DNA of 64,000 nt from Escherichia coli (lineage in GTDB: Bacteria; Pseudomonadota; Gammaproteobacteria; Enterobacterales; Enterobacteriaceae), in NCBI RefSeq assembly GCF_050920415.1, contig NZ_CP169309.1. One strand, 5' to 3'. The position numbers were made by a program, and so were the translations under genes. The notes beneath the pieces were generated by a model. That model made no database searches. It worked only from the letters and a program-made list of their open reading frames with translations, and was not told the DNA's origin. Shown here piece by piece: positions 1 through 61,575 of the stretch; position 1 is the first letter of the stretch, and every line of letters starts with the position of its first letter.

Positions 1-2128
<2,128 letters not shown>

Positions 2129-28610: not shown

Positions 28611-28998
28611 AACTACTTTTCACCTTTTTTGTGCGTCAAATCGTCGACGCGACGTGAACACGCGAAACTCACCTGCATAATGATGAGCAATTTCAGCGGT
28701 TTTTAACAGGCCGATTCTGCCCTTAATTCTGATGGGCGTGTTAGAAAAAAATGTGGTACAACAACTCAGGCAACACGCAAACGATTTACTCGTCGTATTT
28801 CAAATTGCATGTGCTGCGGCTACGTTCGTTCACCCCAGTCACTTACTTTTGTAAGCTCCTGGAGTTCACTCGCTTGCCGCCTTCCTGCAACTCGAAATCC
28901 ATAGAGTAAACAAACATCACCTTTCAGTGCGCTATTGCAGCCGCCTGAAAGAATAGTGTATCGACCTACATCACAGACCGCAGGAAAGGGTCAATATA

Positions 28999-57897: not shown

Positions 57898-58830
57898 ATG
57901 TGGTCAGAATATTCACTCGAAGTTGTTGATGCGGTAGCGCGTAATGGTAGTTTTAGCGCTGCAGCCCAGGAGTTGCATCGCGTTCCTTCTGCGGTCAGCT
58001 ATACCGTGCGTCAGCTGGAAGAGTGGCTGGCGGTGCCGCTGTTTGAACGACGTCACCGTGATGTGGAACTGACCGCTGCCGGGGCGTGGTTTCTCAAAGA
58101 AGGGCGCTCTGTTGTCAAAAAAATGCAGATCACTCGGCAGCAATGTCAGCAGATAGCGAACGGCTGGCGCGGTCAGTTAGCTATCGCAGTGGATAATATT
58201 GTCAGACCAGAACGTACACGGCAGATGATCGTTGATTTTTATCGCCATTTTGATGATGTCGAACTTCTTGTCTTTCAGGAAGTGTTTAACGGTGTCTGGG
58301 ATGCGCTTTCCGACGGGCGCGTGGAACTGGCGATTGGCGCAACACGCGCGATTCCGGTAGGCGGTCGTTATGCCTTCCGGGATATGGGGATGCTAAGCTG
58401 GAGTTGCGTTGTTGCCAGCCACCACCCGCTGGCGTTGATGGATGGCCCGTTCAGCGATGATACGTTGCGCAACTGGCCGTCATTGGTGCGCGAAGACACC
58501 TCGCGAACGCTACCTAAACGTATTACCTGGTTGCTGGATAACCAAAAAAGACTTGTCGTGCCTGACTGGGAATCATCGGCAACCTGTATCTCGGCAGGAT
58601 TATGCATAGGGATGGTGCCAACACATTTCGCCAAACCGTGGCTTAATGAGGGGAAGTGGGTAGCATTAGAACTGGAAAACCCCTTTCCGGATTCGGCATG
58701 TTGTCTGACATGGCAGCAAAATGATATGTCGCCTGCGTTAACCTGGTTGCTTGAGTATCTCGGCGATAGTGAGACGCTGAATAAGGAGTGGCTGCGGGAG
58801 CCGGAAGAGACTCCCGCAACGGGTGATTAA
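57898..58830 (+). CDS. punR: LysR family transcriptional regulator (YdhB/PunR)
   Basis: 310 aa, N-terminal LysR HTH ([23 protein letters not shown]). Confidence 0.88.
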
Positions 58831-59852
58831 CGACGATAGTCTCGGAACGGGCCGTCAGCCACGGAGCGGCGTTCAATCAAGCGCGGATGCACTTCAATGG
58901 ACTGCGGTTCTTCACGTTTGTTGACGATACGATCCAACAGCATGTTGAACGCTGTTTCACCCAGCGAATCTTTTGGCTGATGGATCGTGGTCAGCGCCGG
59001 CGTAAAATAGCGGGCGTTGCGCACGTTATCATAACCGATCAGCGAAACATCCTGCGGGACGCGCAGACCCATTTCATCAGCAGCACAAAGTGCGCCCATT
59101 GCCATGATATCGCCACCACAGAAGACGGCAGTAGGGCGATGCGGCTGCGACAGTATTTGCTGCATGGCGCGATAACCGGATTCAGGTTCAAAGTCACCCT
59201 GTACAATCCAGCTTTCCGGCACTTTGATCATCGCTTCTTCCATTGCCTTCATAAAACCGGCAAGGCGGCCTGCACCAGTGTTACGTTCCAGAGGACCGGG
59301 GATAACGCCGATTTCACGGTGACCACGTTCAATCAGATAACGCCCGGCCATGTAGCCGCCTTCAAACGCGTTATCAATGACTGCATCGGTAAAGTCTGCC
59401 TTTGCTTCACCCCAGTCCATCACCACCATTGGGATATGGCGATACTCTTCCAGCATCGCCAGCAGCGGCTCTGGGTACTCAGAACACATCACCAGCAGAC
59501 CATCGACGCGTTTTTGCGCCATCATCGACAGATAAGCCCGCTGTTTCTCAAGATTGTTCCACGCATTACCCAGAATCAGGGTGTAACCTTTCTGGAAGCA
59601 ATTTTTTTCAACCGCTTCAATGATCTCGGCAAAATAGGCCGCTTCGCTGCTGGTCGCCAGCAAACCGATAGACTTGGTGTGGTTAACCTTCAGGCTACGC
59701 GCCACCGCGCTAGGGGAGTAGTGTAATTCTTTAATCGCTGCCCACACGGCGTTGCGCGTTTCTTCAGCGACGAAACGTGTTTTGTTGATTACGTGTGACA
59801 CAGTTGTAGTGGAAACGTTTGCTCGTTTCGCTACATCTTTTATTGTTGCCAT
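58827..59852 (-). CDS. purR: Purine repressor (LacI family)
   Basis: 341 aa, [36 protein letters not shown]; the 3' end overlaps punR by 4 nt. Confidence 0.97.
59810..59825 (-). promoter_or_regulatory. PUR box (PurR operator O2) inside the purR 5' coding region
   Basis: Minus-strand GAGCAAACGTTTCC contains the pur box core GCAAACGTTT. Confidence 0.55.
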
Positions 59853-59896
59853 TCCATTTCACTCCAGACCCTAACTTCAGCTCCTGCAAAATCGCA

Positions 59897-59912
59897 AGGT
59901 AAACGTTTGCCT
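59897..59912 (-). promoter_or_regulatory. PUR box (PurR operator O1) in the purR leader
   Basis: Minus-strand GGCAAACGTTTACC, palindromic pur box core about 50 bp upstream of the purR ATG. Confidence 0.55.
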
Positions 59913-60150
59913 TTACACACCTTACGCACAACAAAAATGTTGCGGTACGCCGGAAAAACGACACGGAGCGTCAGGAAGGGGTCAATGGCCAGTACGCAAA
60001 TAGTGTAAGCGTGGAATTTTGGCCGATCTTGACGAAAAGGGGAAGTGGTAAAAACACTTATCATTATAAATGACGGGAGATTTTTTCATCACAGTGTGTA
60101 AAAATGCGTAATATCACTTTTTGTGTGGTAATAAAAAAGGAGAAAACTTG

Positions 60151-60240
60151 ATGAGCACCGACCTTAAATTTTCACTGGTAACAACAATTATCGTCCTCGG
60201 TTTGATCGTGGCCGTGGGTTTGACTGCCGCGCTGCACTGA
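60151..60240 (+). CDS. ynhF: Small membrane protein YnhF (29 aa)
   Basis: ATG at 60151 encodes MSTDLKFSLVTTIIVLGLIVAVGLTAALH, a single transmembrane helix, with RBS aggaga upstream; not in the ORF track because it is under 60 aa. Confidence 0.6.
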   Translation: MSTDLKFSLVTTIIVLGLIVAVGLTAALH

Positions 60241-60405
60241 TTTCCTCTCGAGGGAGCGCGTTCTCCCTCGCATCTCCTTCCTGTTTGTTAGCAAAATGGC
60301 AAAAGTGTTTTCTCTTTTTGTTATTTTCATTTTTTTGTGATTGCTGTCATGCTTTCGCCACTTTAATGAATATCGCGTAATGACGCGAAGAGGTGGAGAT
60401 AAGGC

Positions 60406-61575
60406 ATGAAAATTAACTATCCGTTGCTGGCGCTGGCGATTGGCGCGTTTGGTATCGGGACAACGGAGTTCTCGCCAATGGGCTTGTTGCCCGTCATTGC
60501 GCGCGGTGTGGATGTCTCGATTCCCGCTGCCGGAATGTTAATCAGTGCCTATGCAGTTGGCGTAATGGTGGGCGCGCCGCTGATGACGCTTCTACTTTCT
60601 CATCGTGCCCGCCGCAGTGCGTTGATTTTCCTGATGGCGATTTTCACGCTCGGCAACGTACTTTCCGCCATCGCGCCGGATTATATGACCCTGATGCTTT
60701 CACGCATTTTGACCAGCCTGAATCACGGAGCATTTTTTGGTTTGGGTTCAGTCGTGGCCGCAAGCGTGGTGCCAAAACATAAACAGGCCAGCGCAGTTGC
60801 CACTATGTTTATGGGGTTAACCCTGGCAAATATCGGTGGCGTGCCGGCGGCGACCTGGTTGGGTGAAACCATCGGCTGGCGGATGTCATTTCTGGCAACG
60901 GCGGGGCTGGGCGTGATTTCAATGGTAAGTCTGTTCTTCTCATTACCTAAAGGTGGCGCAGGGGCGCGACCTGAAGTGAAAAAAGAGCTGGCGGTATTAA
61001 TGCGTCCGCAGGTGCTGTCTGCATTGCTGACGACGGTGCTGGGAGCTGGCGCCATGTTTACCCTCTACACCTATATCTCTCCGGTACTGCAAAGTATTAC
61101 CCACGCAACACCGGTGTTCGTCACGGCAATGCTGGTGCTGATTGGTGTCGGGTTCTCTATTGGGAACTATCTCGGCGGCAAACTGGCAGATCGTTCAGTT
61201 AACGGCACGTTGAAAGGCTTTTTGTTGCTGCTGATGGTGATTATGCTGGCAATCCCGTTCCTGGCCCGCAATGAGTTTGGCGCAGCTATTAGCATGGTGG
61301 TGTGGGGAGCAGCAACCTTTGCGGTCGTACCGCCGTTACAGATGCGCGTGATGCGTGTCGCCAGTGAAGCGCCTGGTCTGTCTTCATCAGTCAATATTGG
61401 TGCCTTTAATCTAGGAAATGCGCTGGGAGCAGCTGCTGGTGGTGCGGTAATTTCCGCTGGGCTGGGATACAGTTTTGTGCCGGTGATGGGGGCGATTGTC
61501 GCGGGACTGGCATTATTGCTGGTGTTTATGTCAGCCAGAAAACAACCTGAGGCAGTTTGCGTTGCCAACAGCTAA
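60406..61575 (+). CDS. ydhP: MFS transporter YdhP
   Basis: 389 aa, 12 predicted hydrophobic segments, RBS ggtggag upstream. Confidence 0.88.
   Translation: MKINYPLLALAIGAFGIGTTEFSPMGLLPVIARGVDVSIPAAGMLISAYAVGVMVGAPLMTLLLSHRARRSALIFLMAIFTLGNVLSAIAPDYMTLMLSRILTSLNHGAFFGLGSVVAASVVPKHKQASAVATMFMGLTLANIGGVPAATWLGETIGWRMSFLATAGLGVISMVSLFFSLPKGGAGARPEVKKELAVLMRPQVLSALLTTVLGAGAMFTLYTYISPVLQSITHATPVFVTAMLVLIGVGFSIGNYLGGKLADRSVNGTLKGFLLLLMVIMLAIPFLARNEFGAAISMVVWGAATFAVVPPLQMRVMRVASEAPGLSSSVNIGAFNLGNALGAAAGGAVISAGLGYSFVPVMGAIVAGLALLLVFMSARKQPEAVCVANS

Follow-up and report, generated by a model that had tools for sequence, protein, structure and literature searches.

The closest described system is the operator pair O1 and O2 of the Escherichia coli purR gene (Rolfes & Zalkin 1990; Meng et al. 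1990; RegulonDB). In the title of the Rolfes & Zalkin paper, two sites are stated to be required and both are placed downstream of the purR promoter. According to Cho et al. (2011; PMC3159470), PurR autoregulates its own gene and, at purB and purR, blocks elongation, for which He & Zalkin (1992) is cited. The PurR operator of purB (He & Zalkin 1992) is similar in that a PUR box lies in the transcribed, coding region and acts on elongation, not on polymerase binding. It differs in having one site, deep in the coding region, whereas purR has two (in the leader and in codons 10–15) and the gene controlled is that of the repressor itself. The promoter-overlapping boxes of the pur regulon (purF, purT, purC, purHD, and others) share the same 16-bp palindrome, repressor, and corepressors. 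Of 32 promoter regions under direct control, 14 carry the motif between −35 and −10, implying control of initiation (Cho et al. 2011; PMC3159470). Such promoter-overlapping boxes are nearer to the consensus, whereas the purR sites lie downstream and confer weaker regulation. The GalR/GalS operators of the gal regulon have the LacI-family architecture and the central CG in common with the purR sites, and GalR occupies the latter in vivo (PMC5110547). However, GalR-dependent regulation of purR was not seen (PMC5110547), and the fit of the purR sites to a GalR matrix is sub-threshold (see below).

The DNA analyzed here, referred to as the window, is a 64-kb stretch of E. coli. Its 1151-bp segment 59300..60450, which holds both operators, matches 5,425 of the 5,426 complete E. 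coli genomes (95–100% identity across the 5,425) and is annotated there as purR/cydH/ydhP. In a RefSeq strain carrying a 100% identical copy of the segment, the gene order is punC, punR, purR, cydH, ydhP, sodB, and mepH. The A of the purR ATG is at position 59852, and the codons for the N-terminal helix-turn-helix of PurR contain O2. The features at the start of purR are as follows:

58827..59852, minus strand: purR coding sequence, the regulated gene, 341 aa (ORF list and RefSeq annotation of the strain 100% identical over 1151 bp)
59809..59824, minus strand: O2, 16-bp PUR box GAGCAAACGTTTCCAC (coding strand), nucleotides 29..44 of the coding sequence, codons Arg10–Thr15 (matrix, RegulonDB, PMC5110547, wobble conservation)
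59862..59865, minus strand: purR Shine-Dalgarno sequence GGAG, between O1 and the ATG (read off the sequence)
59897..59912, minus strand: O1, 16-bp PUR box AGGCAAACGTTTACCT (coding strand), leader, −60..−45 from the ATG (matrix, consensus, ChIP motif, RegulonDB, conservation)

Two exact copies of the 10-mer GCAAACGTTT are present in the window (59901..59910 and 59813..59822); each lies on the minus strand, which is the coding strand of purR. The upstream core stops 49 bp short of the purR ATG and the downstream one starts at nucleotide 31 of the coding sequence (codons 11–14), in agreement with the preliminary description, which had placed two cores on the coding strand about 50 bp upstream of the purR ATG and about 30 bp inside the gene. 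The range it gave, 59805..59915, spans both operators (59809..59824 and 59897..59912). By itself the 10-mer count is only mildly unusual: the expectation is 0.34 exact matches per window, and at least two were obtained in 5 of 100 shuffles.

Both sites are 16-bp imperfect palindromes close to the PUR consensus ACGCAAACGTTTGCGT, with a central CG and the full GCAAACGTTT core. O1 matches the consensus at 13 of 16 positions, and O2 at 11 of 16 (counted by hand), with the remaining 5 deviating. When the window was searched with the consensus 16-mer and 3 mismatches allowed, O1 alone was returned; O2 is seen only via the weight matrix or the 10-mer core. The PurR 16-bp weight matrix was constructed from 27 PurR ChIP-chip motifs (Cho et al. 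2011, PMC3159470 Table 1), with the site of purR itself omitted. O1 scored 21.1 bits, the top score in the 64-kb window, and the chance expectation is 0.003 such sites per 64 kb. O2 scored 11.2 bits; by chance, about 7 sites of that quality would occur per 64 kb and 0.03 within 150 bp of a given site; the weakest of the 27 training sites scored 11.9 bits. Going by the matrix alone, there is no ambiguity about O1, whereas O2 is marginal and not significant. Weak matrix scores had been named beforehand as grounds for giving up the assignment; they were found for O2 only, where they are outweighed by its published listing and by the conservation of its synonymous sites. Judged by the scores, O1 would be the stronger site of the pair. 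Binding of PurR to the two sites is reportedly non-cooperative, with O1 bound about six-fold more tightly than O2, and repression is said to be about 2–3-fold. The order of the matrix scores agrees qualitatively with this reported order of affinities.

Another strong PUR box, AGTAAATCGTTTGCGT, was detected at 28775..28790 (minus strand), in the divergent intergenic region of ydiK and ydiJ. It is the second best in the window (18.35 bits; 0.08 expected per 64 kb). A PurR ChIP-chip peak designated "ydiJ/ydiK" is listed without a motif in Cho et al. (2011; PMC3159470), and this box probably accounts for it.

The O1 and O2 16-mers are letter for letter the PurR sites in RegulonDB (list reproduced in PMC2585596). 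The motif reported under the PurR ChIP-chip peak at purR, AGGTAAACGTTTGCCT (Cho et al. 2011; PMC3159470 Table 1), is O1 on the opposite strand, so that O1 is identical to the ChIP motif for this gene. For O2, Qian et al. (2016; PMC5110547) placed GAGCAAACGTTTCCAC in purR/b1658 and noted an overlap of the sites with the PurR operators described in 1990 by Rolfes & Zalkin and by Meng et al. The proposed match to the known autoregulatory operators of purR is supported for both sites. One site lies upstream of the ATG and one in codons 10–15, on either side of the start codon; in sequence, gene, distance from the ATG, and 88-bp spacing, the two are identical to the described pair. The sites themselves show no difference from the known O1 and O2, and the locus represents the same system in another E. 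coli strain. The IPOD-HR paper gave no occupancy details particular to the purR locus itself.

The region upstream of O1 was inspected for a promoter. A sigma-70 promoter/terminator scan of 59780..60420 gave no match upstream of O1. By eye, the −10/−35-like hexamers TACACT, TTGACC, and TATAAT were seen upstream of the purR ATG at −155, −133, and −216, respectively. Two further features of the leader and the region upstream of it are:

59923..59947, minus strand: small predicted stem-loop in the leader, −95..−71, 11 nt upstream of O1 (local folding)
59948..59986, minus strand: conserved block TTGACCCCcTCCTGaCGtcCtGTGTCGTTTTCCCGGC, containing TTGACC, −134..−96 from the ATG (column identity 0.86)

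The block at 59948..59986 is a candidate for the purR promoter region; within it, the scan flagged a weak hairpin that resembles a terminator and has a T-run (59973..59959). Local folding predicts the leader hairpin in 26 of 27 Enterobacteriaceae sequences (mean z-score −1.13), with stems that differ among them (for example, CGCAAC/GUUGCG, CACAAUC/GAUUGUG, and UGCAACC/GGUUGCA), and RNAalifold run on the leader did not recover it. If the hairpin is real, transcription would start upstream of O1. Taken together, the block at −134..−96 and the predicted hairpin at −95..−71 give a weak hint of such a start. For the location of both operators downstream of the promoter, as the preliminary description had it, support comes from what the title of Rolfes & Zalkin (1990) states and from the elongation statement of Cho et al. 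(2011); the promoter itself was not located by the scan. Downstream of O1, the Shine-Dalgarno sequence sits within the conserved block GGTCTGGAGTGA (identity 0.93 in the Enterobacteriaceae alignment).

The gene divergent from purR is annotated as cydH (formerly ynhF), encoding a cytochrome bd-I accessory subunit; it is a 29-codon ORF (MSTDLKFSLVTTIIVLGLIVAVGLTAALH) at 60151..60240 on the plus strand. In the purR/cydH intergenic region, an inverted repeat ACGCTAA-N5-TTAGCGT at about −160..−142 is kept in most Enterobacteriaceae and is degenerate in E. coli (ACGCTTACACTATTTGCGT, 59994..60012, minus strand). It could be a regulator site.

For the comparison among species, at least 120 gamma-proteobacterial purR 5' ends were retrieved (one genome per species), using a degenerate pattern for MATIKDVA...HVINKT in which the O2 codons were left free. 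Among the matches listed, an O1-like box was present at −57..−63 in 28/28 Enterobacteriaceae, 11/11 Yersiniaceae, and 3/3 Hafniaceae, and at −45..−85 in 2/2 Budviciaceae, 5/6 Pectobacteriaceae, and 7/9 Erwiniaceae. In Morganellaceae the box has decayed (0/8 of the matches listed), and at this position it was found in none of the 34 Vibrionales and in 2 of the 15 Pasteurellales listed. This lineage distribution agrees with a statement attributed to Ravcheev et al. (2002), by which Vibrio cholerae and Pasteurellaceae lack the autoregulatory site. In the alignment of 27 Enterobacteriaceae sequences, O1 forms an island of conservation, with a column identity of 0.94 against 0.67 and 0.72 in the flanks. 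A PUR box is conserved at the orthologous position of purR, near −60 for O1 in most Enterobacterales and in codons 10–15 for O2 in all 28 Enterobacteriaceae among the matches listed. O1 would be the ancestral Enterobacterales site and, by its matrix score, the strong one.

O2 is more restricted: among the matches listed, its presence in the 28/28 Enterobacteriaceae goes together with Asn at PurR residue 12, and it occurs only there. In other Enterobacterales, Vibrionales, and Pasteurellales, residue 12 is Gly (GGN) and O2 is absent, with two exceptions in the matches listed, one Aliivibrio and Acerihabitans. The Aliivibrio has Ala12 (GCT), likewise without O2. Codon 12 must read AAC for the PUR core to be present; a GGN codon for Gly12 destroys it. 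Acerihabitans (L010) has Asn12 but reads GCT AAC GTA TCG and has no box; since it combines Asn12 with different wobble bases, the protein does not force the box.

Within the Asn12 clade (28 species among the matches listed), Ala11, Asn12, Val13, and Ser14 show almost no variation at their wobble bases, whereas neighboring four-fold codons vary. Synonymous entropy at the four-fold codons Ala11, Val13, and Ser14 is 0, 0, and 0.24, compared with a median of 1.39 over 109 four-fold codons of purR in this clade, and 34 of 100,000 random codon triples were as low (p about 3e-4). In 37 Gly12 Enterobacterales without O2 (among the matches listed), the same codons give 1.77, 1.23, and 1.68 (median 1.63); as they are unconstrained there, the constraint at O2 is not a generic effect of the 5' coding region. 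All four free wobble bases in O2 (GCA, AAC, GTT, and TCC) equal the PUR-consensus base, and the Ser and Thr codons dictate the departures from consensus at positions 13, 15, and 16. The coding-region site is kept beyond what the protein needs, as measured by synonymous entropy, and on this comparative evidence O2 is under selection as a DNA element.

The same data bear on whether O2 could be a by-product of coding, with the LacI-family helix-turn-helix codons Ala-Asn-Val-Ser-Thr happening to spell a PUR-like sequence and O1 alone being functional. Chance alone would supply some 7 sites per 64 kb as good as the 11.2 bits of O2, 3 of its 5 off-consensus positions out of 16 (13, 15, and 16) are codon-forced, and Cho et al. 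(2011; PMC3159470) list only O1 at purR. Against this stand the nearly invariant wobbles of codons 11–14 in the 28 species, which are free where residue 12 is Gly (among the matches listed), and the Asn12 of Acerihabitans without a box. ChIP-chip resolution is too coarse to separate two sites 88 bp apart. In addition, O2 is a RegulonDB PurR site, and the 1990 title says that two sites are required. We regard a mere coding by-product as very improbable. A different proposal is that both boxes are also, or instead, GalR operators linking purR to galactose status, with PurR being secondary. Qian et al. (2016; PMC5110547) observed a GalR ChIP-chip peak at ynhF/purR, gave both sequences as inferred sites, and validated the binding by ChIP-qPCR; with GalR also present at the purR region in vivo, part of the conservation could serve GalR. 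By our own count, O2 agrees with the GalR consensus GTGNAANCGNTTNCAC in 11 of the 12 positions that it specifies. On a GalR matrix made from 17 other sites (training range 16.4–22.1 bits), O2 scored 14.9 bits and O1 11.1 bits, but both are under the weakest training site (16.4 bits), and O1 fits PurR far better than GalR (21.1 bits). The PurR and GalR consensus sequences share the wobble bases that are fixed in O2, so these bases do not discriminate between the two. PurR autoregulation has direct published support, whereas little or no GalR-dependent regulation of these genes was found by Qian et al. (2016; PMC5110547). We regard this GalR proposal as unlikely; an additional GalR input at purR is possible. 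O2 itself is a hybrid in which one half, GTGGAAAC, is GalR-like and the other, GTTTGCTC, is PurR-like.

Two further proposals concern the pair as a unit. PurR bound at O1 and O2 might loop the 88-bp segment cooperatively in the style of LacI or GalR, the loop being what represses, and two operators 88 bp apart that flank the start codon would suit such an arrangement. However, the O1–O2 spacing is 86, 87, or 88 bp among species, so the helical phase is not kept, and 88 bp, at about 8.4 helical turns, is out of phase. PurR is also a dimer not known to have a tetramerization domain, and its binding is reported in the 1990 study to be non-cooperative; both count against looping, and we consider a repressing loop extremely doubtful; binding of PurR at O1 and O2 would instead be independent and non-looping. 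The palindromic cores might also act in the mRNA by pairing with each other and enclosing the ribosome-binding site and the start codon. In principle they could, AAACGUUU being self-complementary, but folding of 59790..59930 (minus strand) gave −32.3 kcal/mol, with shuffles averaging −32.6 (z = 0.08), no O1:O2 helix was present in the minimum-free-energy structure, and O1 is kept without O2 in most Enterobacterales among the matches listed. With the z-score of 0.08 and no O1:O2 helix in that structure, the RNA pairing was rejected, and we give it practically no credence.

O1 and O2 are, with high confidence, the known PurR autoregulatory operators of purR, at which, according to the literature, corepressor-bound PurR, sitting downstream of the promoter, blocks transcription in mild negative autoregulation. 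When the corepressors hypoxanthine or guanine are abundant, PurR dimers would occupy both 16-bp PUR boxes. With both boxes downstream of the purR promoter, as the literature has it, the bound PurR would obstruct RNA polymerase, either as a roadblock or by hindering promoter clearance. Transcription of purR would then fall few-fold, amounting to mild negative feedback. O2 would be the weaker, auxiliary site, written into the coding sequence through free wobble positions. In this scheme, PurR binding in vitro and in vivo, the position of the sites relative to the promoter, and the elongation block are taken from the literature, and site identity, matrix scores, and conservation are from the present analysis.

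The O1/O2 system of purR is already known, having been characterized in 1990 and curated in RegulonDB, and its value here is that of a positive control, with real operators recognizable from raw sequence. The confinement of O2 to Enterobacteriaceae and its tie to the Gly12-to-Asn replacement may be new; no paper describing the link was found, in searches that were not aimed at it. There is about an even chance that O2 is an Enterobacteriaceae-specific addition to an ancestral O1, which could arise only with the change from Gly12 to Asn in the turn of PurR's helix-turn-helix and whose four wobbles were then fixed to the operator consensus, such that protein and operator co-evolved in the same 16 bases. 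As a by-product of the comparison, this is of modest evolutionary interest: an operator inside the codons of the regulator's own DNA-binding domain, with selection at synonymous sites, tied to an amino-acid replacement.
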